A stretch of 64,000 nt of DNA, taken from the IMG/VR virus record IMGVR_UViG_3300028590_000015, positions 1 through 64,000 of that record; one strand, written 5' to 3'. The notes below the pieces were generated by a model. The model was not told the DNA's origin. It made no database searches and saw only the letters and a program-made list of their open reading frames with translations. This document shows, piece by piece, positions 238 to 60,500 of this stretch. The stretch is from a virus. Both the position numbers and the translations under genes were made by a program. How positions within the stretch are numbered: position 1 is the stretch's first letter; every line of letters begins with the position of its first letter.

Positions 238-1272
238 TCACCCGCCTCCAGACCCCTTGCGCGGCAGTGCCGTTACTCGCCGCGCTCGCCCGCCGGTGTA
301 GTGCTCGGTCATGGTCACGCTGGAGTGGCCGAGTAGGGCCTGCGACGCCTCGATACTGCCCGCCTGGTCGCGCAGATCGGCGGCGGCCTTGCGGCGCAGA
401 TCCCGGAACTGGAACGCCTGGCCATCCAGCCCGGCCGCGTTGCGCGCTGCCTCGAACCGGCTGCGCAGCTTCGCCTTGGTCATCGGCTTCCCTTCCTCGT
501 CCACCAGCAGGGCCAGCGACCGCACCGCGAACTTGCGCTTGCGCGCGAGCATCCGTTCGACCAGGCTCGCGAGCCCGCCCACCACGGCGATCCGCATCTG
601 CTTGCCGGTCTTGTCCTGGGTGAAGGCGAGGACGCCGTCGCGCACGTCGGTTTCGGCCATCTTGAGCACGTCGGCGGGGCGCTGGCCGGTGAAGTAGGCC
701 AAGTCCATGCAGTCGCGCAGCGCAGGGCTTCCTTTGGCGTAGACCGCGTCCACCATGCCATCGGTGATATCCACGTCCTTCCGGCCCGGCAGGCGCTTCG
801 TGCGAATCGCCGCCACCGGGTTGATCGTGCAGTAGTCGCGCGCCATTGCCCAGGTGTAGACCATCGACAGGACGGCCTTCTCACGCAGGGCGCGGTGCTT
901 CGACTCCTTGCTGCGCTGGTCGATGTAGATCGTCACGTGCGAGGGCTTCACCTCGTCCATGGGGGCATCGCCGAATTTGGCGAGCAGCTTGTCCAGGGCG
1001 AACCGATAGTCGGCCTGAGTGCCGGCGCCTACGTCGTCAAACTGCGGGCTGGCTAGGTACTGCCCGATGGCCCATGCGACCGTGATTCGGACCGTCGGTG
1101 CCGCCTCGTGGATTTCCACCCACTTCTGCACTGCCAGCACATAGTCGGTGCCCAGGGGCACTTCCTTGCGCGGCTTGCCGCCCAGGTCGTAGCTGTAGTA
1201 CGTGGTGCCGTTCTTGACCCGGGCCCTCATCAGGTCCGGCAAATTCAGGTTTTTGCTGCGCTTGCGGCCCAC
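238..1272 (-). CDS. int: Tyrosine recombinase, lambda-Int-like phage integrase (GTG start)
   Basis: 344 aa; N-term MGRKRSKNLNLPDL..NGTTYY resembles lambda Int MGRRRS..LPPNLY..NGYY; C-terminal catalytic region LLGHSSVTMTEHY (H-x-x-R...Y). Confidence 0.9.
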   Translation of the reverse strand: MGRKRSKNLNLPDLMRARVKNGTTYYSYDLGGKPRKEVPLGTDYVLAVQKWVEIHEAAPTVRITVAWAIGQYLASPQFDDVGAGTQADYRFALDKLLAKFGDAPMDEVKPSHVTIYIDQRSKESKHRALREKAVLSMVYTWAMARDYCTINPVAAIRTKRLPGRKDVDITDGMVDAVYAKGSPALRDCMDLAYFTGQRPADVLKMAETDVRDGVLAFTQDKTGKQMRIAVVGGLASLVERMLARKRKFAVRSLALLVDEEGKPMTKAKLRSRFEAARNAAGLDGQAFQFRDLRRKAAADLRDQAGSIEASQALLGHSSVTMTEHYTGGRARRVTALPRKGSGGG

Positions 1273-3928: not shown

Positions 3929-4224
3929 CGGGCACCTCCACGGATAGGCGATTCCGTGCCAAGCATGGCAGCCTGGGCGATCAGACCTAGCAGCGAGGCC
4001 GTGCGCTTATCTCCAGGTCGTGACAGCAAACTGGCACCAGCCCGGAAAAACCACACGAAGACCCGCCGCCCGATCAGACCGACATTCCAGCCCATGAGCA
4101 AAAGAAAACGACCAAAACCCCCCGCCGCGCGCTGCGCCGCTACCGCAATTGAGCGATGGGCGCGCGCATGCCGCGCCGTTGCGCAGGCCTTCCGAGCATG
4201 GCTCACCGTATGGATCTTGATCAT
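3925..4224 (-). CDS. Small hypothetical protein (99 aa), weak
   Basis: Bracketed by ATGA start/stop overlaps with both neighbours, but Arg/Ala-rich with lower third-position GC than neighbours. Confidence 0.3.
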   Translation of the reverse strand: MIKIHTVSHARKACATARHARAHRSIAVAAQRAAGGFGRFLLLMGWNVGLIGRRVFVWFFRAGASLLSRPGDKRTASLLGLIAQAAMLGTESPIRGGAR

Positions 4225-5219
4225 GGCGTGCCTTGCGATGTGACGGGGTAGCCGTCGTGCTGCACACCGTCGAGCAGGCGCCCCGCCGCCTTCTTGCCTG
4301 CGTGGCCCATGACCCAGCCGTCAGGCGTGGTGGTCTTCTCGCGCACCGGCACCCCCTCGGCCTGGCCGAGCATGGGCAGCCACTCGCCCCACTGCTTGAA
4401 CAGGAACGGGACGCCGGTGAATGCGCACTGGTCGCGAAGACTTCGGGCCCAGTCGGGGGACATGGGGCGTGCGGCTGTGCCGCTTTCGCCACCGACGATC
4501 ACCCAATCAATGCGGGCATGCATCGGGCCCACGGCATCAGCGATCGGCACGCCGTACCAGTCCTCGAAGTCTTCCTCCCAGTCGTCGCTGGTGTCGCGCC
4601 AGTTCTCGATCTCGGTCTCCCACAGGTCCGGCTTCAAGCAATCAATTTCGCCCTCGCCATAGGGCAGGCTGCGCAGGTTGATGGCACTCAGCAGCGGCTC
4701 GATGCTCAGGAAGTTCGGGCAGTACAGCTCGATCAGCTTGGCCACGTCGCGTTCGGCTTCGGTCTGGTTGCAGATCGTGATACCAAGGCGCAGGTGCTTG
4801 GGCCACCCCCCTGCCGCAAGCCATGGCGTCCCCACCATCTTCCGCACGTTGCCGATTCGCTTCGTCAACAGGAGCCAGTCAAGGTTTGGCGTGGCCTCGA
4901 TGAGGCGGAACAGGTCTGTGCGCCACTCGTCGGGCACCTCGTTGTCGAACACATCGGCCAGGCTGGCGCAGAACACGCGCTGGCGGCGGCCGTGCTGGGC
5001 CTGGAAGGCTTCGGCCTGGGCGTTCCAACGCAGAGGCAGGGACCAGTTGGCTGGGCTGGTGCGACGGCGAGGCTGACCAGCGCCCCAGACCACGCCCAGG
5101 GCGCGCGACGCCGTGCTCACCTCGGCGTAGCAGTGGTCGCAGGCCGGTGACACCTTGGTGCAACCGATCCACGGGTTGAACGTGTGGTCCGTCCACTCGA
5201 TCTTGCTGTTCGCGCTCAT
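4221..5219 (-). CDS. Phage Gp37/Gp68 family protein (DUF5131)
   Basis: 333 aa; N-term MSANSKIEWTDHTFNPWIGCTKVSPACDHCYAE matches the conserved start of the Gp37Gp68 family. Confidence 0.75.
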   Translation of the reverse strand: MSANSKIEWTDHTFNPWIGCTKVSPACDHCYAEVSTASRALGVVWGAGQPRRRTSPANWSLPLRWNAQAEAFQAQHGRRQRVFCASLADVFDNEVPDEWRTDLFRLIEATPNLDWLLLTKRIGNVRKMVGTPWLAAGGWPKHLRLGITICNQTEAERDVAKLIELYCPNFLSIEPLLSAINLRSLPYGEGEIDCLKPDLWETEIENWRDTSDDWEEDFEDWYGVPIADAVGPMHARIDWVIVGGESGTAARPMSPDWARSLRDQCAFTGVPFLFKQWGEWLPMLGQAEGVPVREKTTTPDGWVMGHAGKKAAGRLLDGVQHDGYPVTSQGTP

Positions 5220-6123: not shown

Positions 6124-6368
6124 TGCACCCTCGGCTTCGTGAAGCGGTCGAACTCGACGCCGGGTTGCATGCTTCGCAACTGAGCTTCGATGAAGCCGCG
6201 TGCGAACTCAGTTCCGAGGGTGCCCCACATCGCCCCCATGAAAACGGCAAGCACGCCCGTGATGTGGGCTTCGAGTGCTTCCCGATCATTCGTTGGGATG
6301 CGCTGGACCGCATCCATGGCGAATGCCAGTCCCGCCTTCACCTTCTCATCAGGGAGTTGCCGGTTCAT
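6120..6368 (-). CDS. Hypothetical small protein (82 aa)
   Basis: Coupled overlaps; helical composition. Confidence 0.55.
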   Translation of the reverse strand: MNRQLPDEKVKAGLAFAMDAVQRIPTNDREALEAHITGVLAVFMGAMWGTLGTEFARGFIEAQLRSMQPGVEFDRFTKPRVQ

Positions 6369-7501
6369 GCGGAACTACCCTTCTGGAGCACGGTGCGGCC
6401 GCCGTTCGACGCCATGGCCGAAACCACGCCCATCGTTTCGAGCGACTCCAACAGGCGGGCCGCGCGGTTGTAGCCGATGCGCAGGTGCCGCTGGATGTAG
6501 GAAATGCTGCCGCGCTGACCTTTGACCACGAGGGCGCGGGCCTGCTCGATCAACTCGTCCTCGTCTTTCGCGGCCGCCGGCTGGTCGGAGGCGGCCGCGC
6601 CGAAGGCCATTTCGCCGCCCAGCGCCTCGATCAGCGCCGGGATGAGCTTCTGCAGTTCGCCGGTGGACAGGGCCACGTCCGCGTCGAAGCCCGACTCGGC
6701 GTCTTCCGCCCGGTCGGCGAACACGCCCTCCAGGAAGTTGAGCTTCTTGAGGCGGAGCGCGTCGGTGAGCACGAAGCCGATACGGCCTTCCCAGCTCATT
6801 GCGAGCTGGGTGGGCAGCTTGCCCTCGGTGATGTGCTTGCGCACCTCGTCGATCGCCAGGTTGTGGCGGTTGAACTTCACCACCGACATTTCCTCGTCGC
6901 TGGAGCGCAGCTCGCACGCGCGCTCGACCGCGAAGCCTTCCGGCCATTCATCGGGGCTGGTGGCCGACAGCCACTGCGTCATGGCTCCCGTGGGCGTCCA
7001 GTCGGTTTGCAGCAGCGTGAGCGCGAGGCCGTCGAAGGCTCGCACCAGTGCGGTGACCACCTCGTCCAGCTTGCCCTGGCTCGTCGCGTCGGCAACCAGC
7101 CACCCGCGCTGCAGGTCGAGCCACACCAGCACGCTCACGGCACGGGGGAAGGCCTGGGGCAGCAGGGCCAGCAGCGCGTCCTCGCGCAGCGCCTTCATTT
7201 CTTTCTTGCCGGGCTTGCGGCCAGTGGTGGCCTCGATGTGGTCGGCGTCCTCTTGGGCCTTCTTGCGCACGGTGGCGCTTGGCACCGACTTGGACTCGAT
7301 CTGGAGTTTCAGGATGCGCTGGCCAGCGACGGACTCCACGAGCGGGCCATGGGCCTCGCCGCGCGGCTCCACCCAGCCCACCGCTTTGTCCTGGGTCGCG
7401 CCGCAGGCCACAAACCGCGCTGCGTCGAGCGCGGCTTCCATATCCTCCAGCGAGGGCGCCCAGCCGGGCGCGATGCGGTAGATCACGATGTTCTTGAACA
7501 T
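6365..7501 (-). CDS. rdgC: RdgC-like recombination-associated protein with C-terminal FtsK-gamma winged-helix domain
   Basis: N-term MFKNIVIYRI (cf. E. coli RdgC MLWFKNLMVYRL), RdgC-like through LIEALGGE; C-term SISYIQRHLRIGYNRAARLLESLETMGVVS..NGGRTVL matches the FtsK gamma (KOPS/XerD-binding) domain. Confidence 0.8.
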   Translation of the reverse strand: MFKNIVIYRIAPGWAPSLEDMEAALDAARFVACGATQDKAVGWVEPRGEAHGPLVESVAGQRILKLQIESKSVPSATVRKKAQEDADHIEATTGRKPGKKEMKALREDALLALLPQAFPRAVSVLVWLDLQRGWLVADATSQGKLDEVVTALVRAFDGLALTLLQTDWTPTGAMTQWLSATSPDEWPEGFAVERACELRSSDEEMSVVKFNRHNLAIDEVRKHITEGKLPTQLAMSWEGRIGFVLTDALRLKKLNFLEGVFADRAEDAESGFDADVALSTGELQKLIPALIEALGGEMAFGAAASDQPAAAKDEDELIEQARALVVKGQRGSISYIQRHLRIGYNRAARLLESLETMGVVSAMASNGGRTVLQKGSSA

Positions 7502-7510
7502 GGCCACCGC

Positions 7511-8464
7511 CTACTTGATCTGGATGAAAGGCGTGGCGTTGTTGCCGCCCATCATGTATTGGGGCAGCTTCCCGTCCCACTTCTCGACGGCCTTCATGTC
7601 CACGTAGGCCTGGCCGCCCTGCTTGTTGATCGCCTCGGCTTGGATGCGGATGGTTTCAGCCCCGGCCTTCGCCCGCTCGATCGTCTGCTGGGCCTCGAAC
7701 TTGATTCGCTCCAGGTCGTTCTTTGCGGTCTCGGCGCGTTGCGTGGCTGTGACCTTGGCCTCGATCGCCTCGTCGAAGGCCTTGCTGAAACCAAAGTCGG
7801 TGATGTTGACGTTCTGCACGCGGACGTGGAACTGGGCCAGCTTGATCTTCAAGGCTTCGATGAACTCTGCGGAGACTGCTGCACGTTTGGTGATCAGCTC
7901 CTCGGCGGTGTAGCGCGAGGTGACCGCCTTGAAGGTCTCGAACAGCGCGGGCTCAATGAAGCTCTGGCGATACAAGAGCGTCGGGTTGAGGATGTACAGG
8001 TCGCGCGCCCTTGCCGGGTCCACTGCGTAGTTCACAGTGACCGATCCGCCAACCGCCTGCATGTCCTTGGAAGCGGCGCTCATCTTGTTGGCAGCCGCCG
8101 TGTCGAGCCCTGTGAAGACCTCGTGCACCGAACTCACGGGCAACACAAAGTGAGGCCCCTCGTGCAGCACCTCCGGGTGCGGTTTGCCGAAGGTGGTGAC
8201 CACACCAACGCGAGATGTGCCGATGATGGTGAAGGACGCCACCACGAGGACCGCGAGTGGCACCACGAGCCCGGCGCTGAAAGCAATCTTAGCGATGACA
8301 CCCAAGCCGTCGGCGGCGTCACGTGACTGGTCAGCGAGATCCGAACGTTCGCGCGTGCGGTATTCCTGTTCGTGCTTACGGTGGGCCCGCGCCTGCAGCC
8401 AGGCGAAGATCCCGATGCCCCAAGCGATCATGGCGATGATGAGGCAGATGACGATGATTCCCAT
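7511..8464 (-). CDS. SPFH/band-7 (prohibitin/HflKC-like) membrane protein
   Basis: N-terminal TM segment, then SRVGVVTTFGKPHPEVLHEGPHFVLP and coiled-coil tail typical of the SPFH family. Confidence 0.8.
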   Translation of the reverse strand: MGIIVICLIIAMIAWGIGIFAWLQARAHRKHEQEYRTRERSDLADQSRDAADGLGVIAKIAFSAGLVVPLAVLVVASFTIIGTSRVGVVTTFGKPHPEVLHEGPHFVLPVSSVHEVFTGLDTAAANKMSAASKDMQAVGGSVTVNYAVDPARARDLYILNPTLLYRQSFIEPALFETFKAVTSRYTAEELITKRAAVSAEFIEALKIKLAQFHVRVQNVNITDFGFSKAFDEAIEAKVTATQRAETAKNDLERIKFEAQQTIERAKAGAETIRIQAEAINKQGGQAYVDMKAVEKWDGKLPQYMMGGNNATPFIQIK

Positions 8465-8479
8465 GGTGGTTCCTATGTG

Positions 8480-8544
8480 TTGTGAGAGAAAAGGGCGGCC
8501 CTGGCGTAGTGGTGGTTCGGCAGGGATGGGGTGCCAGGGCCGCC
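8480..8544 (-). terminator. Intrinsic terminator / attenuator hairpin with large loop between KTSC gene and SPFH gene
   Basis: 12-bp perfect stem GGCGGCCCTGGC / GCCAGGGCCGCC; on the minus strand followed by CCTTTTCTCTC. Confidence 0.45.
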
Positions 8545-8550
8545 GGAAAA

Positions 8551-9096
8551 TCAGGCCGCGGCGAGCGAGATGGCGTCGGGTTCCTTCATGCGCGCGGGGT
8601 TCGCCAGGGCGAAGTCCTCGAATGCGGTGATGCGGTCGCGCACAGCGACGGAGTGGTCGATTTCCTTGACCATCGACAGGTAGGCGTGCAGCAGCGGCAC
8701 CGCGTAGATGTCCTGGGCGCGCAGCACGAAAACCGGTTCGTCGTCGGGGATGGGCTGGCCGGTGGAACGGTTGACCAGGCGGCCCGTCTTGCTCGACGCG
8801 GTGTATTTCGGCTCCTGGCCCTGGGTCAGTCCGAACACCACGCCGGTGCCGTCGGGCTGGCGCTCGAAGGCGTACTTGTTGCGGATGACCTTGCCGAAGA
8901 AGCTGCCCTTGGACTCGGCCGCCAGCATCGCGTCGAACTGCTCCTGGGGGAAGTCGAAGTAGTGGTAGACCGCGCCGCCATGGGCGAACTTCACGGCGAG
9001 AGTTTTGGACTCAGCGTGGTATCCGAAGCCGGAGATTTGCGACGAGTCGCAGGGCTGCAGTTCGATGGTCAGGGTGGGACGAGCGGTGATGGTCAT
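8551..9096 (-). CDS. KTSC-domain protein
   Basis: N-term ISGFGYHAESKTLAVKFAHGGAVYHYFDFPQEQFDAMLAAESKGSFFGKVIRNKYAFER matches the KTSC domain consensus. Confidence 0.7.
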   Translation of the reverse strand: MTITARPTLTIELQPCDSSQISGFGYHAESKTLAVKFAHGGAVYHYFDFPQEQFDAMLAAESKGSFFGKVIRNKYAFERQPDGTGVVFGLTQGQEPKYTASSKTGRLVNRSTGQPIPDDEPVFVLRAQDIYAVPLLHAYLSMVKEIDHSVAVRDRITAFEDFALANPARMKEPDAISLAAA

Positions 9097-9120: not shown

Positions 9121-9177
9121 AAGAAAAAGGGCACCCGCCGGCAAAGGGGAGGGAGGAGGTATGGAGGCACCGGCGGG
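9121..9177 (-). terminator. Intrinsic terminator / attenuator hairpin between exonuclease gene and KTSC gene
   Basis: 8-bp stem CCCGCCGG / CCGGCGGG with long loop; minus-strand U-tract TGCCCTTTTTCTT; shares 14-mer GGAAAATCAGGCCG with the 8538 region. Confidence 0.4.
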
Positions 9178-9192
9178 TATTGCCCGGGAAAA

Positions 9193-10983
9193 TCAGGCCG
9201 GCTGCGCTTGGGCAACCTGCTGGACGTGGCGGATGATTTCGAGGCAGATGGCCTCGAACTGCGACTCGCGGTAGAGGCGAGCATTGCGGTCGACGGTGGC
9301 GGCGAAGCCGAGTTCGGCGAGGAAGTCGGCGGTCACCGTGAAGCCCAGGCGCGCGCTGATGTCGCCCAGCTTCATGGTGGGCTTCTCGTCTTCCTTCGGC
9401 GGGAACAGGTCGGCTGCCGGGGCGCGCGCGGTGGTCCGGGTGTACAAAGCCACGGGCGGCGGCGCTGCGGGTGAGGCGGACGGTGCCGCCGGGGCCGGCG
9501 CCGGTGATGGCGTTGCGGCTGCAGCGATCGTGGCCCTGGCCAGGCGCTCGGCTTCGGCATCTGCGGCTTTCTGGCGCTCGCGGGCTTCGCGCTCCAGGCG
9601 CTCGGCTTCTTCCTTGCGGATCTGCTCGCGCTGCTCTTCGAGTCGCTTCTGCTCGGCCTGTTCGTGCGCGTTGATGCGGTTTGCCACCAGCGCCTGCAGG
9701 TCATCGGGCGCCTTGAGCACGATGGTGGGCGTGTCCGAGAACAGGAAGATGTGCTTCGATGCCGTCTCGCGCAGGTGCTTGAGGTTGGTGTCGATGCGAT
9801 CGGCGGTTTCGTTGGCGGCGATCTTCACGCGCGCCAGCTCGGTCTGGACCGCGTTGCGCAGGCTTTCAACGGTCCGCAGGTTCTTGATCACGCCGCCGAA
9901 GTCGGCCGCGATCGGGGGCATGTAGGGCTTGCCCAGGCGGGTGTTCAGCGCGTCGATGTGTTCGCGGAAGGCCGTCACCCCCTCGGCCACGATCTCGCCC
10001 TTGATGGCGACCTTGCGCGCCTCCAGCCTCTTCTCGGATGCCAGCCGGTTGTCGCGCGCCAGCTTGTGCAGCATTTCCTTGGTGCGCTTGATGGCGTCCA
10101 CCGATTCGACCTGCGACAGCATGTTGGCCTCGGCTGCGTCCAGTGCGGCTTCCGCCTTTTTGAGGGCGGCGATTTGCAGGGTGAGGTCCGCGAAATCCTG
10201 GTCGGTCTGCGGCTTCTCGATCAGGTCGGTGTCGATGAACTTGCGCAGCGCGGCCTCGAACACCTTGAAGTTGTCGCGCACCATGAGCGCGCCGGTCACC
10301 TGGACGGCCACCGCAGGGAGGTCGGTAACGGCTTTGGCCACTGACTTGTCGATCACCTCGACCGGCACGTAGACGGCGAGGTCGGCTTCAAACTGTTCCC
10401 AACCCTTGCGGATCTGCTCCGCCAGAGCAGGGTTGGACTCGTACCAGCAGTGGCGCTCTTGGATCAGCTCGCCATCGTCTGACCACTTCGACGCCATGAA
10501 CAGCACGCGCTTGCACTCGGCGACCATGCACTGCTGTTCCATCTGCACCTGGTACTTCCTGGGCAGCTCGCGGCCGCCGGCTGAGTCGCGCTGGGCCGGT
10601 GCGATCGTGTCGATCTGGTCGAATGCCTCGTTGAGCTCGTCGTTGAGCGTCTTGTGCTCAAAGGCGATGTCTTCCAGCAGGGTCAGGCCATCGAATGAGG
10701 CTGACAGCTTGCCGTTGGTGCCGGTGACGGCGTAAAGCTCCTGGCCAACGATCTTCTCGGCGAGTGGGCGCGAAAGGCTCTCGAAGCGGTGGCCAGGGTC
10801 GAACACGCGCTCCTGCACGAAGGAACTCACATCGCGCTCGAAGCCCACGTGCTTTTCGTGAAGCAGCTCGGTGCGCGTTTTGTGGCCGCAGCCCATCATT
10901 GCCGGCGCATCGCTGGCGTTGTAGTGCTGGGCGCGGTGGGCGACCCATTCCGGCGTGCCCTGGATCAGTTCGATGGTTTTCAT
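9193..10983 (-). CDS. YqaJ-like (lambda-Exo/PD-(D/E)xK) recombination exonuclease with long C-terminal coiled-coil and Ala/Pro-rich extension
   Basis: N-term MKTIELIQGTPEWVAHRAQHYNASDAPAMMGCG typical of YqaJ viral recombinases; ATGA-coupled to RecT; about 300 extra C-terminal residues of heptad-like EQ/KR-rich sequence. Confidence 0.75.
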   Translation of the reverse strand: MKTIELIQGTPEWVAHRAQHYNASDAPAMMGCGHKTRTELLHEKHVGFERDVSSFVQERVFDPGHRFESLSRPLAEKIVGQELYAVTGTNGKLSASFDGLTLLEDIAFEHKTLNDELNEAFDQIDTIAPAQRDSAGGRELPRKYQVQMEQQCMVAECKRVLFMASKWSDDGELIQERHCWYESNPALAEQIRKGWEQFEADLAVYVPVEVIDKSVAKAVTDLPAVAVQVTGALMVRDNFKVFEAALRKFIDTDLIEKPQTDQDFADLTLQIAALKKAEAALDAAEANMLSQVESVDAIKRTKEMLHKLARDNRLASEKRLEARKVAIKGEIVAEGVTAFREHIDALNTRLGKPYMPPIAADFGGVIKNLRTVESLRNAVQTELARVKIAANETADRIDTNLKHLRETASKHIFLFSDTPTIVLKAPDDLQALVANRINAHEQAEQKRLEEQREQIRKEEAERLEREARERQKAADAEAERLARATIAAAATPSPAPAPAAPSASPAAPPPVALYTRTTARAPAADLFPPKEDEKPTMKLGDISARLGFTVTADFLAELGFAATVDRNARLYRESQFEAICLEIIRHVQQVAQAQPA

Positions 10984-11810
10984 TTCCCCGCTCCTTCGGT
11001 GGTGGCATCGGTGGTGCTGGGCCCGGTGGCGGAGCCGGCGCCGTTCTCGATCGGGGCCAGCTTCTTGATCGCATCCTTCTGCGTTTCCGACAGCACGCCC
11101 TTCGTGGACAACATGGCGATCAGCGCCTCGGGGGTTTTCCGGCCGCTCTCGATCACGCCGCGCCAGGCGGGCAGGTTTGCGTCGAAGTCCTTCTGTGGGT
11201 AGTCCGGCAGCTCCGGCTTGTTCGGCGGCGGCGCAGGGGGAGGCGGCGGAGCGCCCACCTCGTCGGCCATGCCCATGTCCTTGGGCAAGTCCTGCAGCTC
11301 CTCGGTGACCGCCATGCCCTTGAGCACGTCGGGGAAGGAGTCGCGCAGGCGGAACGAGCGCGCACGCATCTGGCGCATGCGCTTCGGATACTGGGTCCAC
11401 GGGCCGGCCTTGCCGAGCAGGCCTGCGGTCTTCGCGTCGTTCATGTCGAACGTGCTGACCTGCTCAGGCTCGCCCCGCCGCTTCGCGCGGCATGTGGCTG
11501 TGTGACCGTCGTCGGTCTCGATGACGTACTCGCACAGCGGGCTGGAGCGCACGAGGGCGAGCACAGCATCGCCCCACATCGAGGGCCGACCGTTGATGAC
11601 GGCGATGTTCTGCATCGCCTGCAGAGGCTTCAAGCCCACCTCCATGCCCCATTGCATGGCGATCAGGCAGTTGCCCGGCTTGCCCACGAAGTCCTTGGGG
11701 ACCATGGTGCTGTCGGCGAGGTAGTCGGCCAGCGTAAGGGCCTGCTCGAAGGTCTTGGGACTCAGGTCGAACTGACCGACCTGGGCGGGTGCGATTTCAG
11801 TGCTGCTCAT
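10980..11810 (-). CDS. recT: RecT-family single-strand annealing protein
   Basis: 276 aa; FDLSPKTFEQALTLADYLADSTMVPKDFVGKPGNCLIAMQWGMEVGLKPLQAMQNIAVINGRPSMWGDAVLALV matches the RecT family. Confidence 0.85.
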   Translation of the reverse strand: MSSTEIAPAQVGQFDLSPKTFEQALTLADYLADSTMVPKDFVGKPGNCLIAMQWGMEVGLKPLQAMQNIAVINGRPSMWGDAVLALVRSSPLCEYVIETDDGHTATCRAKRRGEPEQVSTFDMNDAKTAGLLGKAGPWTQYPKRMRQMRARSFRLRDSFPDVLKGMAVTEELQDLPKDMGMADEVGAPPPPPAPPPNKPELPDYPQKDFDANLPAWRGVIESGRKTPEALIAMLSTKGVLSETQKDAIKKLAPIENGAGSATGPSTTDATTEGAGK

Positions 11811-14167: not shown

Positions 14168-14839
14168 TTATTCGGGTACCCACTTGCCGATCACCACACC
14201 GGTGATGGAGGCATGTCCGTTGATCTCGACATAGCGCGGCTTCCATTCTGGGTTGAGCGCCTTGAGCATCTTCCTGCCGTCCTCGACGAGGAACTGCTTG
14301 AACGTGCCTTCCTGGTGGTCATCGAGGCGCACGATCACGCGGTCGCCATGCTTGGCCTCGCGGTCGGGGTCTACGAAGATGATGTCGCCGTCGGAGTAGC
14401 TGGGGCGGCCGCCGGGGTTGTACATGCTGTCGCCGCGCACGCGCAGGCAGTACGCGCGCGGGCCGTGCTTGACGGGGCAGGGCAGCCAGTCCTCGGCCTC
14501 GCCGAGCGCGTAAGGGTCCGCGATGTCGGCCCAGCAGCCAGCCTGAATCCACGAGATCAGCGGCACGCCATCGGGGATGGTCAAGGTTTCGGTGTTGCCA
14601 CCACCCATGCTCATGCGGACTTTGGACGTGGTGATGGACGCGGGCTCAATGCCGAGCAGCTCCGACACCGTGATGCCGAGCGCCAGCGCAACCGCTTCTT
14701 GGTTTGCGCGCTTCGGGGCAGTCTTTCCGCTCTCCCACTGCTGGATGGACCCGCGTGAAACACCAATGCGGTCGGCCAGTTGCTGCTCGGTGAGCTTCAA
14801 CCTCGCGCGGTGGTGCTTGATCACGTCTTTGGTCTGCAT
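14168..14839 (-). CDS. cI: CI-like prophage repressor (HTH_XRE + S24 LexA-like peptidase domain)
   Basis: N-term HTH LTEQQLADRIGVSRGSIQQWESGK; C-term autopeptidase region with G-DSM and K motifs (VRGDSMYNPGG..IIFVDPD..HGDRVIVRL). Confidence 0.9.
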   Translation of the reverse strand: MQTKDVIKHHRARLKLTEQQLADRIGVSRGSIQQWESGKTAPKRANQEAVALALGITVSELLGIEPASITTSKVRMSMGGGNTETLTIPDGVPLISWIQAGCWADIADPYALGEAEDWLPCPVKHGPRAYCLRVRGDSMYNPGGRPSYSDGDIIFVDPDREAKHGDRVIVRLDDHQEGTFKQFLVEDGRKMLKALNPEWKPRYVEINGHASITGVVIGKWVPE

Positions 14840-14898: not shown

Positions 14899-15126
14899 AT
14901 GGACCCAAAGCAATCCCTCAATGAGGCCATCGCACTCGCGGGTGGGCTCAATGCCTTCACCGAGGCGGTCGCAGCGCCGTCCACCTCCGCCGTCAAGGCC
15001 TGGCGCCTGACTCAGGTGCCAGAGAAATACTGCCCAACCATCGAGCGCATCACCGGGGTGCGCTGTGAGCGGCTCCGGCCCGACGTGGAGTGGGGCGTTC
15101 TCAGGCAAACCACTGCGGAGGCCTGA
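14899..15126 (+). CDS. cro: Cro-like / YdaS-family HTH regulator
   Basis: 75 aa; divergent from cI; EAIALAGGLNAFTEAVAAPSTSAVKAWRLTQVPEKYCPTIERITGVRCERLRPDV resembles the Cro/YdaS HTH family. Confidence 0.75.
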   Translation: MDPKQSLNEAIALAGGLNAFTEAVAAPSTSAVKAWRLTQVPEKYCPTIERITGVRCERLRPDVEWGVLRQTTAEA

Positions 15127-51461: not shown

Positions 51462-52877
51462 ATGCAAAGCAGCTACGAGGTTTCGGTCAACGCAGCCACG
51501 CGCGCGGCAGTCGCGAGCGGCATTAACGTGCTCAACGCCTACCTGTTTGGCCAGACGGAGACGGAGCATGTCGCCCGGCTGCTCGACATGATGGACCCTC
51601 CGCCTGGCGCGGTGGTGATCGATGCAGGCTGCGGCGTCGGCGCGGTCGCCGAGGTCATGGCGCAGTTTCGGTCGGACCTACAGTTTGTCCTCGTGAACTC
51701 GAATGCCGAGCAGTTGGCGCGGTGTCCGGCCAGGATGCAGCAGCACCTGTGCAGTTTCGATCAGATGCCGCTCGACGACTGCAGCGCCGATGTGGTGATG
51801 TTCCATTTCTCGATCTGCCACGCGGAAAACTGGAGCGCGGCCGCGCGCGAGGCGTGGCGCGTGCTCAAACCCGGCGGCCTGCTGTTCATCAACGACATGC
51901 AGCGCATGCGCGGCGACAACACGCTTCTGGCCCACACGTTGAAGGCCTACGCGCACCCTGCTGGGGCCGTCGAAGAGGCCGCGCAGCGATGCGGTTTCGA
52001 GCTGGATGCGCTGATCGAGCCAGCACCCGTGGTGGAGCGACTGGCGCAGGCCCTCGATTCGCCTGCCTGGGCAACGGCGCTGCTGTCGGACGTGGCGCCG
52101 GCCGTGTGGCGCTTCACCAAGGCCGTGGCGGCCGGGCCCGTTGCATCAGCCTTCGCGCGCCATCGCCGCATCGGCTTCCAGTTCTCGGGCGGCCGTGACT
52201 CCACCGCGGCGCTGTACCTGCTGCGCCCTTACTGGGATCGCATGACGGTCTACCACCTGGACACCGGCGATCAGTTTCCTGAGACGCGGGCTGTGGTCGA
52301 GGCGGTCGAGCGCGATATGGGGAAACCCATGACGCGGATCGCCGGTGATGTGGAGGCGGTGCGCGAGCAATACGGGCTGGCCACTGACCTGCTGCCCGTC
52401 GACAACACCGCGCTGGGGCGCATGGTTTCCGGCAAGTCCGTGAAACTCATCAGCCGATTCGACTGCTGCTACCTGTCGCTCATGAAGCCAATGCAGGCCC
52501 GCATGGTTGCCGACGGCATCACCCTCGTGGTTCGTGGTCAGCGCGACGACGAGTACCACCAGCCGCCGCTGCGATCCGGCGATGGCGAGGGCGGCATTGA
52601 GGCGCTCTATCCCATTCAGGACTGGACGGGCGACGAAGTCTCGGCATACCTCGTGGCCCGAGGTCTTCCGCTCGCCCCGTTTTACGAGCGCGGCGCGCGC
52701 CGAGCGCCAGAGTGCATGGGGTGCACGGCCTGGTGGGACGAGGGCCGTGCCGCCTACCTGCGCAAATGGCATCCAGTCGCGTTCACCCAGTACCAGCAGC
52801 GCATGGGCGTCGTGAAGAACCAGATCCACCAGCAATACGCCGTCTTGATGGCGGCCGAAAAGGAGACCCAGCCATGA
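51462..52877 (+). CDS. Fusion protein: class-I SAM-dependent methyltransferase (N) + PAPS-reductase-family PP-loop ATP pyrophosphatase (C)
   Basis: N: VVIDAGCGVGAVAEVMAQ (motif I), LKPGGLLFIND. C: FQFSGGRDSTAALYLL (SGGxDS PP-loop) and C-terminal CMGC (CysH/DndC-like family). Confidence 0.75.
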   Translation: MQSSYEVSVNAATRAAVASGINVLNAYLFGQTETEHVARLLDMMDPPPGAVVIDAGCGVGAVAEVMAQFRSDLQFVLVNSNAEQLARCPARMQQHLCSFDQMPLDDCSADVVMFHFSICHAENWSAAAREAWRVLKPGGLLFINDMQRMRGDNTLLAHTLKAYAHPAGAVEEAAQRCGFELDALIEPAPVVERLAQALDSPAWATALLSDVAPAVWRFTKAVAAGPVASAFARHRRIGFQFSGGRDSTAALYLLRPYWDRMTVYHLDTGDQFPETRAVVEAVERDMGKPMTRIAGDVEAVREQYGLATDLLPVDNTALGRMVSGKSVKLISRFDCCYLSLMKPMQARMVADGITLVVRGQRDDEYHQPPLRSGDGEGGIEALYPIQDWTGDEVSAYLVARGLPLAPFYERGARRAPECMGCTAWWDEGRAAYLRKWHPVAFTQYQQRMGVVKNQIHQQYAVLMAAEKETQP

Positions 52878-54529: not shown

Positions 54530-57500
54530 ATGAACCTCGAAGAAGCCCGCAAGCGCCTGCCCGAACTCGAAGGGCTGAGCGACCCCGCTGCGATCGATGT
54601 GATCCACGAGGTCTACTACCCGCAGATGGACAAGGCCAAGCTGGCGGGCAAGTTGGGCTACAAGGCCCCGCCGGCGCCCGCGCCAGAGCGCAGCACCATG
54701 CGCGCCGCAGGCGACTTAGCGCTGCAGTTCGGTGGTGGTGCCGTGTCTGGTGTGCGCATGATGTCCGACTTGCTGGGGGCGAACAACGCGGTGTCGGGCA
54801 CGCTGCGCAACGCCGAGGACGCCCTGCAGAAACTCCAGAGCGCGGCTGCGCAGGCCGACCAGCAGCAGATCGCCGCCATCATGAAAGAGGCCGAAAGCAA
54901 GGGCTTCGTGGACCAGGTGCTGGCGGGGGTCAAGGCATTCGGCGTGGCGCCTGCGGCAATGGTTGCTCAAGCCCTGGGCACTTCGCTGCCCACCCTGGCC
55001 ACAGCAGCCATTCCAGGCGCTGGGCCCATGGCACTGGCGGCGCGCCTTGGCGCGGCAGGTGCGGTGGGCGCAGGGCAGGGCGCGGGCAACATCAAGGGCG
55101 TCATCTACGACCAGGTGAAGGCAAACCCACTGCCGGGTGAGGCGCCCGAACAGACCGAGGCCCGCGCCGTGGACGCGCAGTCCTACACCGGAGAAAACGC
55201 CGATCAGATCGCGCTGGGCGGTGGCCTTGGCCTGCTCGCTGGTGCCACGGGTATGGAGCGGGCCGTCGGCGCTCTGCGAAACGGTGTCGCGAAGGCCGCG
55301 CCCGGCATGGCCGCGCGCGTGGGCCTCGGCGCCGCTGGCGAAGCCGTGCCGGAGGCCCTGCAGGGTGGCCAGGAGAAGCTGGCGGGCAACCTGGCGCTCG
55401 GCCGCGAGGGGTTCGATGTGGACCCCATGTCGGGCGTCGTGGCCGGCGGCACGATGGAGGCGCTGGCCGGCGGCGTAATGGGTGGCGCAACGGCGCTTCC
55501 TCGACCCGCAGTGCGCACGCCCGACCCGATTTCCCAGGCCGGCGACGCCATTCGATCGGCTGAGGTGGTGCCGGAGTCGGGCCCGATGACCCGCGCGGCC
55601 AACGTGGCCACCGAGATGAAGGCGCAGCAAGCTGAGGCCGACGTCGCTGCGCAGGTGGCCGCGATCGAGCCTGCCGAACCTGCGCCGGTGCCAGCACAGC
55701 CAGTGGCCGACGATCCGGTGGCGCAGCCCGTCGCCGCTGTCTCGCCGGTTGAAGCCGCGCCGGTGGACGCCTCGGACGCTGCCCAAGAGCAGCGGGCCAA
55801 CAACGCGCTGGCCAGCATGGAGCGCCAGGCGCAACGCGACATGCAGAGCATGCGCGATTTCAGCCGGACCACGCCTGCCACCAGCGATGTGCCCGATCCG
55901 TTCGCCGACGTGCCGGTGGCCGGCGGTGCGCCCGCGGCTGCCGCGTCGGGGGATGTCCTGAATCCCAAGGGCGAGCCTTTCAAGACCAGGATGGCTGCGC
56001 AACGTGCCACCAAGAAGACCCCTGGCGATGTCGTGCCCGTCGCGGGCGGCTTCGTCGTTCGCCCAACCATCTCCCAGGATCTCGCCAGTGAGCCCACCCA
56101 AGGAACCCCAGATGCAGCCGCTGTCGCGCCGTTTGACGCGGGCGCAGCGCCGGCAGTGGAGCCCGGTGCCGGGCCCGATGCGGGAGAAGCTGGCGCTGCA
56201 GCGCTTGTTCGACCGGCCGAGCCCGAGCAGCCTGCGGCACTGATCGCGCAGGCCCCTGCCATGCCTGCCGCTGAAAGCGACTGGCAGGTCTTCCCAGCCG
56301 ACACCGAGACGCTCAACGTGCCGCGCGCCGAGATGCCGCAGATCAAGGCCGCGCACCGCGGCGCGATGGTCAATTTCCTCAAGGCCCGAGGTATTGAGCA
56401 CGAGGCCGACGAGGTGGCGGCCAACACGCTCAAGCCCACCCAGGCCGAGTTTTCAATCTCCAAGGTGAAGAAGGCCCAGGACTTCGGCGACCCCGATCGT
56501 TCCATCCTGGTGTCGGCCGACGGCTACGTGGTCGATGGCCACCACCAGTGGATTGCGCGCGGAGCCAACGGCGCCAGCGTCAAGGTGATCCGCCTCAAGG
56601 CTCCGATCTCCGAGCTGCTGCCCGCGGTGCGCGAGTTTCCCAGCTCCACCGTCGATGAAACGACAGCCGATGTCCAGAACGCAACGCAAGAGCCCGCAGG
56701 GGAAGCGGCCCAAGCCGCGAACACTGAAACGACAGCGCCAGCGGGAAGCGATGGAGCCGCCACCGAAGGAGTTTCCCCAGAGGGAAGTTCCCCCGTGGAA
56801 GCCGCTGGGGTGAAGGATGGGGCAGCGCCCGAGTCGGACGCCGCCCACCCCCCGCAGGCGGATGCGTCGCCTCCTCAACAAACCGGCCAGGCTCCTGAGC
56901 CCGAACCCGAGCAGCGCACGCCGGAAAAGGTGGTGGCGCGGCGTAAGCGCCTGATCGCTGAACGCAAGGCCTCCGAGATTGCCTCACCAGCCCAAGAAGC
57001 AACGAAGGAGGCGCCTGCAACGGAGGCGCCCGCCCCATCGAAGCCGAAGGCGAAGCGGCAGACGGCGGCCTCGCGCCAGGCGGAAGCAGAGGCCGCGCGC
57101 GCCGGCTATTTCACCCCTGGTCACGTGGTGCGCGGTTACGGTGGCTTCGATGAGGTGTTGGCGTACAACCCAACAGACGGCGGCGGGTTCAGCGTGACCG
57201 TGCATGAGGTGAAGCGCGTGGGAGACGAATGGCACCGCGTCGGCAAGCCGCAGGACGCGCGCACGCACAGCACGCAGCCCGAGGACCGGCTGCTCAAGAA
57301 CGGCCCATTCGCGCGCCTGTCCTACCGTCGCGCTGGCGAGGTGGTCTACACCAGCCCGCGCGCTGATGGCCAGCCGTTCCCGAATGCCGTTGATCGAGGT
57401 GTCGCGCCGCCTGCGGAGAAGGTCGCCGAGCCTGATCCAGCACCAGCCCCGAAGGCTGAACGAGCGGCCGCTCCAAAGAGCGCCGCACCGGTCAAGATCG

Positions 57501-60500
57501 AGGACTTCGGCGAGAAGCTCGCCGGCGCGCGCAAGGACTACGCCGCGCAGCTCAAGGACGCCGAGGCCCTGGACGTGTCCGCTGTGCCGCTGTCGCAGTC
57601 GTGGCCCGAGCCGGACTACCAGAAGCTGCTGGAGGGCGGCGCCGATCCATTCACCGTGGCGTTCATTCACGCTGCGCGCGATGAGGTGCCGAACAAGCCG
57701 CAGACGGCTTGGAAGCTCAAGGGATGGGTGCCGATGGTGAATGCGCTTCGCGGCATGTCGCACATGCTGCTGGCGGGCCGTGCCACGAGGCAGTCCTTGA
57801 CGGACATGCTCAGCCGCGCCGACATGCGCAGCGTGCGCGATGGAGTCGCCAGCCGCGCCGAGCTTTACGAGGCTGTGGGGCACGACCGGTCGCTTAAAGG
57901 CCTGTCGTTCGCTGAGCACCACTACTCGCTCTACAAGGGCCAGCCGAACGTGCGGAAATGGGTTGTCTCGCAGCGCTCGAAGTCCACTGCTTTCGGCAAC
58001 TGGCCCCGCGAGCTGGCCGTCGGCGATACCAAGGCGGCCATGCTGGAGCAGTTCACGGCGAAGCTGGTTGCTCAGGACATCAATGGTGTCAGCGCCAAAG
58101 CCAAGCCCAGTTTCGTGATCTACGGCAAGCGCGGCCAGAAGGGCGCGTTCATCGGGAAGAAGATCGGGCGCGAGTACATCGACCTGCACAAGGCCGACGA
58201 CGTCGTCGCCGCGCGACGCTACATGGCCGAGAACACGGCCGCGCTGGAGAAGGCGCTGGAGCGATACAAAGAAACCCCGTTCGAGCGGAAGTCGGAGAAT
58301 GCCCCCCGTGTTGGTGGCGACCACCGCAATGGCGCGCCGGTGACGCCCGAGGTTTTTGGCGACACCTTCGGTTTCCGTGGCGTGCAGTTCGGCAACTACG
58401 TGGAGCAGGGTCGGCGTCAGTCGGACCTCAACGAGGCGTTTGACGCCCTGATGGACATGGCCGCCGTGCTCGACCTGCCGCCGCGGGCACTCTCGCTCAA
58501 CGGGCGGCTGGGGTTGGCCTTCGGCGCGCGTGGCAAGGGCGGGAAGAACGCCCCAGTCGCGCACTATGAGCCCAGCAGCGTGGTGATCAACCTCACCAAG
58601 GGCGGCGGGCCCGGCAGCTTGGCGCACGAGTGGTTCCACGCCATGGACAACTATTTCGCCAAGGAGGGCGGGGATATCGGGTTCATGACCGACGCAGCAC
58701 GCGGCGACGCGCTGCGCGCGGAGATGCGCGAGGCGTTCATGGTCATCAAGCGCGCGATGAACCAGGGCGAACTCAAGAAGCGTTCGCTGGAGCTGGACAA
58801 GCGCCGCTCGAAACCGTACTGGTCCACATCGCTGGAGATGGCAGCAAGGTCGTTTGAGAGCTACGTGATCGCGAAACTCTACGACCAGGGCGCGGCCAAC
58901 GACTACTTGGCCAACGTGGTCAGCCCGGAATACTGGGCGGCCGAAGAGGCGATGCGCGAGGTGTTCGAGGGCAAGAAGGCCGGGCCGACCTTTCCCTACC
59001 CCACGGTGGACGAGATGCCGGCGTTGCGCGCAGCGTTCGACGACTTTTTCAAGGTGGTCCAAACCCGCAAAGATGACGATGGCAAGGTGGCCATGTTCAG
59101 TCGCGCGGAAGGGGCGCCGAAGGGCATCAGCCCGGCCCAGGCGTCGAGCATCGTCAGCGCGCTCAGCAAGCGTTGGGCGAACGCACCCGAGGTGGTGGTT
59201 GTTTCCAGCATCCAGGACGAAGCGGTCCCGGTCGAGGTCCGCGAGCATGACCTTGAGCAACGAAGCCTTGGCGCCAGTGGCGAGCCGGAAGGATTCTGGT
59301 ACGACGGCAAAGCCTACGTGGTGGCTGGCGCGCTGAATGGCCCTGCGGACGTGGTGCGCGTGCTATTCCACGAGGCGCTCGGCCACTACGGCCTGCGTGG
59401 CACGTTCGGCGAAGGTCTGACCCCCATCCTGAAGCAGTTGATCGCCATGCGGCGGCCCGCCGTCGAAGCGAAGGCAGCGCAGTACGGCCTGCAGATGAGC
59501 AACGAAGAGCACCGGATGCAGGCCGCCGAGGAAGTGCTGGCCGAGATGGCTCAAAGCCGTCCAGGGCTCGGCTTCGTGAAGCGCGCGATCGCAGCCGTTC
59601 GCGCGTGGCTGCGCACGCACGTGCCCGGGTTTGCGAGCATGAAGCTCACCGACACGGACATCATTTCCCAGTTCATCCTGCCCGCGCGCCGGTTTGTCGA
59701 GAATGGCGCTGCGCGCCAGCAGGGGGGCGTCGAACCCGCCATGGCGTTCAGCAAAGCCGAGCGCAATGCCCTGGACGAGATCAGCCGCATGGACGAGATG
59801 TTCGCCGTGCCGAAGTCCAACCAGTTGACCCTGGAGGGCATCTTTGCTGACCTGGCGCCGCAGATCCAGGTGAAGCGCGGGCATGCCATGGGCACGCAGA
59901 CCACCTACCGGCTCACGTTGCCAATCGCGAACAAGGGCGATGGGTTGATCACGGCCACGGTGACGGTGCGAGAGCCGAACCCCTATGGCGCGAGTGTCTA
60001 TGGGGTGGAGTTCGACGCCGAGAACGAGATCATGGAGGCCTCTACGGTGCGCCCGGGGGAAAACCCAGCGGACCTGTCGCCGGACATGGCGGATGTGTGG
60101 ATCGATGTCTCCAGCCTGCCCCAGGGGTCCGGCTTGGGCGAGATCATCTACAGTGCGGCCGCCAATTTCGCGCACAACACCGGGCGGGTGTTCATCGGCG
60201 ACCCTAACGGGTTGAGCGCTGTCGCGCTGCGCCGCCGCACTGAGCAGATGATCTCCAGCGCATTGAAGTTCGGCACGACCGACCACCTCGCGCCCCATCC
60301 CGACCAGGTGAAAGGTGACACCGCCGCCGGCGTGCCGGCGCTGCGGTGGGTCTATGGTGACTCGGAGGGCAACATCGAGCGCATGATTGACGTGAGCCTC
60401 CAGTCCATCGAAAATGCCCTTCCTTCCGCGAAACTCATCGGGTATGACGCTGCCAGCAACAAGTTCTTCCGCATCGACACCGGCGCTCGCTTGCCTTTCC

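Follow-up and report, generated by a model that had tools for sequence, protein, structure and literature searches.

The stretch of DNA analysed here, hereafter the window, comprises 64,000 nucleotides (positions 1 to 64,000) of IMG/VR virus record IMGVR_UViG_3300028590_000015 and belongs to a tailed temperate phage or prophage of about 65% G+C. We examined one of its genes, rdgC-gamma, whose product joins a RdgC ring subunit to the winged-helix gamma domain of FtsK. The gene lies on the minus strand, with its ATG at 7501 and its TGA at 6365-6367, and encodes a protein of 378 residues. The original prediction had placed it correctly at 6365-7501, and the strings quoted there, namely the N-terminal MFKNIVIYRI, ...LIEALGGE, an Ala-rich linker and the C-terminal EDELIEQARALVVKGQRGSISYIQRHLRIGYNRAARLLESLETMGVVSAMASNGGRTVL, are all found as quoted. 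A plus-strand reading of the same interval was rejected, as its translation gave no sensible protein. The gene and the three parts of its product are located as follows:

6365..7501, minus strand: rdgC-gamma gene, complete (open reading frame [ORF] translation and source gene call in L001)
6611..7498, minus strand: RdgC ring-subunit domain, residues 2-297 (Pfam PF04381, NCBIfam NF001463, PDB 2OWL, Foldseek)
6566..6610, minus strand: Ala/Pro-rich flexible tether, residues 298-312, MAFGAAASDQPAAAK (structure-model confidence, linker comparison and DNA breakpoints in relatives)
6383..6565, minus strand: FtsK-gamma winged-helix domain, residues 313-373 (Pfam PF09397, superposition on 2VE9, residue mapping)

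Profile searches bore out both halves of the fusion as first proposed. The first 300 residues or so are RdgC, with PF04381 covering residues 2-297 (E=4e-94, 315.7 bits against a cutoff of 25, profile positions 3-298 of 298) and NCBIfam NF001463 scoring 379.1 bits, above its cutoff of 324. The C-terminal segment did score as FtsK-gamma, PF09397 matching residues 313-373 (E=7e-23, 80.5 bits; gathering cutoff 30.6) over profile positions 2-62 of 63, that is, 61/63 positions. Sequence matches in the PDB were to RdgC for the ring (2OWL, 1e-43; 2OWY) and to FtsK gamma for the C-terminus (2J5O/2VE8, 1e-12; also 2J5P and 5DCF). A monomer model of the fusion made with AlphaFold2 (AF2) and built on 82 sequences had a mean predicted local distance difference test (pLDDT) score of 83.8, with both modules confident and values of about 85-95 over residues 1-300; only residues 261-272, 301-312 (pLDDT <50 at 301-312) and the last three were disordered. 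When compared by Foldseek, the modelled ring adopted the RdgC monomer fold with its base, centre and tip/finger (2OWL_A, E=1e-28, template modelling [TM] score 0.89, root-mean-square deviation [rmsd] 2.6 Å), and the modelled gamma adopted the three-helix winged-helix fold of gamma bound to its DNA motif, the FtsK orienting polar sequence (KOPS; 2VE9_B, TM 0.95, rmsd 0.9 Å, 48% identity). By all sequence and fold criteria tested, the window protein is thus a member of the RdgC family whose C-terminus is a bona fide FtsK_gamma domain. An identical protein sequence occurs on three independent metagenome contigs, the longest of 89.7 kb, and the same architecture is found in cultured phages; an assembly chimera was rejected on these grounds, and the fusion is a genuine feature, not an artefact.

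The ring is full-length, shares its fold with cellular RdgC of E. coli (2OWL) and Pseudomonas aeruginosa (2OWY) and is 32% identical to the former, while the start of the linker that follows it is common to chromosomal RdgC of Hydrogenophaga. Unlike the host proteins, which stop at this point or carry an acidic '...DDDGPPF' tip, the window protein adds a folded gamma domain, and its gene lies in a phage early operon rather than at a chromosomal locus. By analogy with other RdgCs, the protein is predicted to form a ring homodimer that encircles double-stranded DNA (dsDNA) and inhibits RecA functions, a biochemistry known just for the E. coli, P. aeruginosa and Neisseria proteins (PMC11077077). 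The gamma module is the same winged helix as in FtsK of E. coli (2J5P) and P. aeruginosa (2VE8/2VE9) and in the XerD-gamma structure 5DCF. In contrast to FtsK, it comes without the alpha/beta translocase motor, the membrane anchor or translocation directionality, and two gammas are expected per RdgC dimer against six per FtsK hexamer. The FtsK_SpoIIIE motor (RecA-fold alpha/beta ATPase) was absent by Pfam, residues 2-297 being RdgC, and the NCBIfam FtsK model matched residues 311-373 only, with 47.5 bits against a cutoff of 1566. Since the protein has no motor domain, it is not an FtsK/SpoIIIE translocase.

We then mapped the recognition surface of gamma, giving residues in E. coli FtsK numbering. 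KOPS recognition depends on N1296, R1300, E1303 and E1306 (PMC2533119, PMC2680272), and XerD is contacted by Q1288, R1289 (critical), R1292, I1293, G1294 and N1296 (PMC5052618, Table 1). All four KOPS-reading and all six XerD-contact residues of the window gamma are identical to those of E. coli FtsK, so the recognition surface is retained as had been proposed; this is consistent with a predicted ability to bind GGGNAGGG DNA and/or XerD. In FtsK, the R1300A and E1303A substitutions abolish KOPS reading and keep XerCD activation, the residues that contact XerD all belong to the larger set that contacts DNA, and a 9-mer, 1289-1297, is enough for XerD activation (PMC5052618). Across dereplicated fusions, representative clusters containing the fusion and FtsK gammas, key positions were identical to E. 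coli FtsK as follows:

Q1288: 50/50 dereplicated fusions, 42/42 representative clusters, 24/24 FtsK gammas
R1289: 50/50 dereplicated fusions, 41/42 representative clusters, 24/24 FtsK gammas
N1296: 49/50 dereplicated fusions, 40/42 representative clusters, 24/24 FtsK gammas
E1306: 49/50 dereplicated fusions, 40/42 representative clusters, 24/24 FtsK gammas
E1303: 43/50 dereplicated fusions, 38/42 representative clusters, 24/24 FtsK gammas
R1300: 38/50 dereplicated fusions, 32/42 representative clusters, 24/24 FtsK gammas
R1292: 33/50 dereplicated fusions, 20/42 representative clusters, 24/24 FtsK gammas

Positions 1304, 1307 and 1308, which lie next to these on the surface, are free to vary in both fusion sets. 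R1292, which has the most XerD partners (four residues), is the most relaxed key position in fusions and invariant in FtsK, and the residues that touch DNA and not XerD (R1300, E1303 and E1306) are still under selection. This pattern tilts the fusion family towards reading of a DNA motif, and only modestly, because the DNA and XerD surfaces overlap.

These data bear on the chief alternative, unlikely yet not negligible, in which gamma docks on host XerD at dif and either parks the ring at the terminus or activates XerCD without FtsK or septation, with possible uses in resolving or tangling replicons or in disturbing host chromosome segregation. The identity of the six contact residues to E. 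coli FtsK fits such docking, as do the near-invariance of Q1288 and R1289, the latter in the critical salt bridge (50/50 dereplicated fusions and 41-42/42 clusters), and the window's 9-mer 1289-1297, RHLRIGYNR, which is the exact Burkholderiales FtsK version. Moreover, gamma alone, or fused via a 14-aa linker, activates XerCD-dif without the motor and yields catenated or knotted products, although free gamma does so only at high concentrations (PMC3130261); a phage could turn this activity to its own use. Given that every XerD contact is also a DNA contact, however, conservation of these residues does not discriminate between the two partners, and relaxation of R1292 alongside retention of the DNA-only residues speaks against XerD as the target. 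The same tallies address a second alternative, which we consider distinctly unlikely, namely that gamma merely raises the affinity or residence of the ring on dsDNA, or competes with FtsK for KOPS loading, and has no address function; in one variant, FtsK would be kept from loading on phage DNA or stripping it. Substitutions of R1300 and E1303 are tolerated in some fusions, as a generic grip would allow, but the base-reading residues are strongly kept in most of them, against a purely non-specific role, and RdgC by itself already binds dsDNA tightly (PMC11077077).

Comparison with relatives revealed that the C-terminal module is swapped as a unit. The window ring shares 87-89% identity with P0002 and P0003, both gamma-less, 77-81% with RdgC from Hydrogenophaga chromosomes (contigs of 4.6-5.8 Mb), and just 64-74% with the nearest other fusions. 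Host RdgC has the same linker start (...LIEALGGEMAFGAAA...), followed by an acidic ...ADADDDGPPF tip. When ring domains were placed on a neighbour-joining tree, forms with gamma, with a 'PF' tip and without a tail were interleaved throughout, and the ring of a Pseudomonas phage adjoined P. aeruginosa RdgC. In four pairs the rings are 94-96% identical and the module alone differs, gamma being replaced by no tail (L096/L110 and L101/L113, gamma-bearing member first) or by a PF tip (L106/L124 and L107/L111). Between relatives, DNA homology spans the ring and ends at about codon 303-305 inside the common linker, directly after ...GGEGRTGLGDLPASL, the sequences beyond being unrelated. A statistic on linker length was left aside, as it covered just 18 proteins. 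No separate gamma ORF was found elsewhere in the gamma-less viral loci, and the gamma-less relatives are hence not frameshifted or split fusions. A single ancient fusion was likewise rejected on the basis of the RdgC-domain tree and nearest-neighbour analysis. From these comparisons, the fusion has been made, lost or exchanged many times, which argues for selection on the combination of ring and gamma. One gamma-less relative, P0003 (302 aa), is itself a mosaic whose C-terminal ring half equals that of the window protein and whose central part is of the host-type allele (P0007 compared), indicating recombination between phage and host rdgC alleles.

The gamma module matches the host clade. The window gamma shares 68% identity with the best Burkholderiales FtsK and 49% with E. 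coli or P. aeruginosa FtsK; for the Pseudomonas phage gamma the figures are 66% with P. aeruginosa FtsK and a median of 53% with Burkholderiales FtsK, and that of the Vibrio phages is closest to the enteric type. Ring and gamma both resemble those of the host clade. Such matching is what a species-specific protein contact would demand and counts in favour of XerD as the partner. Fresh capture of gamma from a host FtsK was rejected, since despite the host-clade type only 55-69% identity to any FtsK gamma was found. In a Rhodocyclaceae bacterium (UBA5602, L020), the gamma-encoding 3' end of chromosomal ftsK (about nt 6345-6519) lies some 1.5 kb upstream of rdgC (8001-8903) on the same strand, a possible genomic route to an rdgC-gamma fusion.

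Many gamma-less RdgCs end in a low-complexity linker and an acidic '...DDDGPPF', '...DDGDPPF', '...PGESPF' or '...DEAPF' tip, and were found in the following entries:

Acidic PF-tip RdgCs: P0007, P0020, P0035, P0037 (Hydrogenophaga chromosomes); L009-L012; L111, L118, L121, L124 (prophage/viral); P0246, P0273, P0284 (representatives)

The C-terminal hexapeptide of SSB, DDDIPF, docks RecO, PriA, ExoI and others, and rdgC genetics are tied to RecFOR and PriA, both clients of the SSB tip. The RdgC PF tip resembles this hexapeptide and could be an SSB-tip mimic that recruits SSB clients or competes for them, a variant that would fit the known rdgC genetics; our literature search found no paper linking RdgC with the SSB C terminus. 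That the alternative module looks like a protein-docking peptide also favours the idea that gamma docks on a protein, XerD. Four further RdgCs (P0279, P0381, P0340 and P0346) have long (30-100 aa), strongly acidic, disordered C-terminal tails with no recognisable domain, which may be a fourth kind of appendage.

The fusion had at first been called unusual, which is true of the literature, where our searches found no paper describing it, but not of nature, where phages of Proteobacteria commonly carry it (147 GenBank phage records; 42/150 clusters). A tblastn search of 50,697 phage records gave 362 records with a match, of which 147 covered at least 80% of the query, taken as a match running through gamma. 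IMG/VR held dozens of full-length fusions, gamma was present in 67/111 of the RdgCs collected, and an exhaustive profile search of 1.84 billion representatives found it in 42 of the 150 top-ranking 50%-identity clusters. Looking for the same fusion in other phages, as had been suggested, yielded Pfam-confirmed examples of both domains in Achromobacter phage CF418P1, Vibrio phages SHOU24 and 264E42.1, and the Pseudomonas Hollowayvirus vB_Pae_CF63a, and a ring only in Acidovorax phage ACP17, Curvibacter phage PCA1 and chromosomal Hydrogenophaga RdgC. The four phage fusions have the same architecture as the window protein and lie among phage replication and recombination genes; they differ in being 29-38% identical to it overall, with ring and gamma each like those of their own host clade.

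Existing annotations obscure this architecture. Because NCBIfam has RdgC models only, and fusions pass them, the label 'RdgC' is uniform; other labels on homologs are 'recombinase' and 'exonuclease recombination-associated', and none reflects the two domains. The homolog of Achromobacter phage CF418P1 (OQ817832.1; L003, 5995-7155) is labelled 'DNA translocase', evidently from the gamma match alone, and this is a misannotation since the window fusion has no FtsK motor. Hundreds of database entries named 'RdgC', 'recombinase' or 'DNA translocase' conceal RdgC-gamma. RdgC homologs have been noted in lambdoid early-left operons, with role unknown (PMC12315714), and the role of phage FtsK_gamma genes has been called unknown (PMC8190038). 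New here are the module swapping at the level of the linker (gamma, SSB-tip-like or none), the host-clade match of both modules and the retention of DNA-reading residues.

Residues 297-375 also match at least seven more PHROGs of unknown function (phrog_6576, 22882, 6152, 36563, 4212, 4446 and 13700), within which the position of gamma in the protein varies; phage proteins seem to have reused gamma widely as a module. Its promiscuity, in several function-unknown PHROGs and in a small terminase subunit (TerS; PMC8190038), is a point for a generic DNA grip. The TerS, of Bacillus phages Sam46 and Sam112, is equally an earlier case of a phage protein with gamma as its DNA-address module, a host-derived gamma having been grafted on a DNA-handling protein, presumably for DNA recognition (PMC8190038). 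In that case, as opposed to the window protein, the partner is Terminase_2, gamma is N-terminal and the process is packaging.

The genes around rdgC-gamma place it in the early left arm of the phage, which is lambdoid, downstream of a recombination module. A divergent repressor/Cro-like pair marks the start of the leftward early operon, in which a RecT-like gene is followed by RecE/YqaJ-like, KTSC, SPFH, rdgC-gamma, small ORFs, DUF5131 and integrase genes; genes for the large terminase, the portal, the major head protein and an internal virion protein lie in the rightward arm. The recombination setting given in the original prediction (SPFH protein, YqaJ/RecE-like exonuclease and RecT-like annealase) was found as described, and the features of this arm are:

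14899..15126, plus strand: Cro-like gene, divergent from the CI-type repressor (gene annotation)
14168..14839, minus strand: CI-type repressor with helix-turn-helix and S24 peptidase (gene annotation)
10980..11810, minus strand: RecT-like single-strand annealing protein, 276 aa (phrog_561, 3.5e-65)
9193..10983, minus strand: RecE-like/YqaJ-type recombination exonuclease, 596 aa (phrog_7655, 3e-175; Pfam YqaJ, 2e-5)
8551..9096, minus strand: KTSC-domain protein, 181 aa by the source gene call (Pfam PF13619)
7511..8464, minus strand: SPFH/Band_7 protein, 317 aa, upstream neighbour of rdgC-gamma (Pfam PF01145, 1.5e-28; phrog_200)
238..1272, minus strand: tyrosine integrase, end of the early-left arm (Pfam PF00589, phrog_1)

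rdgC-gamma begins 9 nt past the stop of the SPFH gene, and its TGA shares bases with the ATG of the small gene that follows (ATGA); the gene is therefore a member of the operon and expressed with the phage recombination genes. The tyrosine integrase shows that the phage is temperate. No tRNA or tRNA attachment site was found in the 64-kb window, and no closely related deposited phage at the DNA level, only short patches of 75-80% identity to Burkholderia and other phages.

This setting also bears on a RexA-like role, with superinfection exclusion or a bias of the lysis-lysogeny decision in place of recombination control and gamma directing the protein to regulatory DNA. Lambda RexA is phage-encoded, has an RdgC-like fold and binds DNA non-specifically (PMC11077077), and Casjens and colleagues raise such a role for RdgC homologs in lambdoid early-left operons (PMC12315714). 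The window protein, in contrast, has no sequence similarity to RexA; its ring shares 80-89% identity with genuine RdgC of chromosomal or host type and scores above the RdgC subfamily cutoff. It has no RexB partner, PADLOC returned 0 families both for the fusion and for the neighbouring SPFH, KTSC, exonuclease and RecT proteins, and the gene is co-operonic with RecET, not with immunity genes. We regard a RexA-like role as very improbable.

If gamma reads KOPS, candidate targets exist in the phage itself, at the following positions:

Starts 9146 (9146..9153), 11941, 14475, 18648, 20772, 41444, 51301, 55073 and 60538, plus strand: GGGNAGGG KOPS-type octamers, candidate gamma targets (motif count)
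58994, minus strand: GGGNAGGG KOPS-type octamer, candidate gamma target (motif count)

The plus:minus counts in the window are 9:1 for GGGNAGGG and 6:0 for GGGCAGGG. Under a synonymous-codon-shuffle null, the overall excess of GGGNAGGG on the plus strand had a P of about 0.004. The left arm is explained by this null (3 plus and 0 minus observed, 3.4 and 0.2 expected), while the right arm has 6 plus and 1 minus where 3.0 and 5.1 were expected, so that the late-gene arm carries GGGNAGGG on its coding strand, contrary to the codon-bias expectation. The phage genome is genuinely KOPS-polarised. Around rdgC in relatives, the corresponding ratios were 36:11 at gamma-less loci and 125:13 at gamma-plus loci, counts that are confounded by codon usage; the stronger polarity at gamma-plus loci (Fisher p=0.02) was not relied on, given the confounding by codon usage and phylogeny. 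The window has no dif-like site, its best match to the 28-bp E. coli dif having 12 mismatches, and the XerD arm of dif gave chance-level matches only. This, together with the phage's own integrase, weighs against recruitment of XerD, and the lifestyle of an Xer-exploiting integrative mobile element (IMEX), integrating at dif, was rejected as far as the 64-kb window shows. A comparison that bears on the XerD alternative is XafT of TLC-phi, a phage-encoded Xer activation factor; it is reported as a mobile-element protein that could take the place of FtsK gamma in XerD activation, distinct from gamma and carried by an element that integrates at dif (PMC6744903, PMC9226527). The window domain differs as a true gamma homolog, in a phage with its own integrase and a window without a dif-like site.

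The reading that we favour, tentatively and with a little less than even confidence, is that gamma acts as an address tag: during lytic development it would nucleate or concentrate, on KOPS-type DNA, a clamp that antagonises RecA and is otherwise blind to sequence. E. coli RdgC is a toroidal dimer that encircles dsDNA and restrains RecA (PMC11077077). After induction or infection, the fusion would be made together with RecET, and the RdgC ring dimer would bring two gamma domains as its address tag. These would bind GGGNAGGG-type octamers and load the clamp on KOPS-bearing duplex DNA, that is, the host chromosome plus the phage's own KOPS-polarised genome. On clamped DNA, RecA/RecFOR-dependent strand exchange and RecA* signalling would be damped while the phage annealing pathway runs. 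Since gamma engages DNA and XerD through one surface, it may also, or instead, contact host XerD. An address role is supported by the modularity seen above, in which near-identical rings differ in the tail alone and diverge at a breakpoint in the linker, and by the existence of targets, the 64 kb containing 10 GGGNAGGG sites of which 9 share a strand.

Several points weigh against an address tag for KOPS. The total number of GGGNAGGG octamers is not enriched, 10 being seen where a Markov model expects about 4 per strand (about 8), and KOPS polarity, present also near gamma-less rdgC, may just show that prophages adapt to the FtsK of their host. For Comamonadaceae, the KOPS motif is an assumption based on the conserved gamma residues, and R1300 and E1303 are changed in 10-25% of fusions, so that not every member of the family reads KOPS strictly. 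In FtsK, one KOPS is read by three gamma domains (PMC3384302); the RdgC dimer would offer two against FtsK's three, and a single gamma binds weakly. RecA inhibition by phage RdgCs, finally, is extrapolated from the E. coli protein.

More broadly, RdgC is a long-known and mechanistically vague recombination modulator whose known DNA binding is sequence-blind, and FtsK gamma has been studied almost only within the chromosome pump. For RdgC, the RdgC-gamma family raises the question of where on DNA it acts and whether recruitment is the missing part of its mechanism; for gamma, it raises the question of whether KOPS polarity or XerD can be exploited by proteins other than FtsK. That near-identical rings end in gamma, in an SSB-tip-like peptide or in no tail suggests recruitment as the variable tuned by evolution. 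A wider proposal, which we consider possible but doubtful, is that the RdgC C-terminus is an interchangeable address label swapped at the linker by phages and hosts (gamma, an SSB-tip mimic or nothing), and that its gamma form is the first non-translocase KOPS reader or a phage-borne, FtsK-independent XerD activator; either way, a RecA-blocking clamp would be set at defined, oriented sites on host or phage DNA in lytic growth.

Elsewhere in the window, the DUF5131 protein encoded downstream of rdgC-gamma in the operon (4221-5219, minus strand) matches the PADLOC candidates PDC-M30B and PDC-M41B (E about 1e-46), and patches of its gene are common at the DNA level to Gordonia, Mycobacterium and Xanthomonas phages. 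Among the late and structural genes, positions 51462-52877 (plus strand) encode a PAPS-reductase-like protein (phrog_424) with a weak tRNA-methyltransferase-like N-terminus. The structural arm is closed by a single ORF of 3081 aa at 54530-63772 (plus strand).

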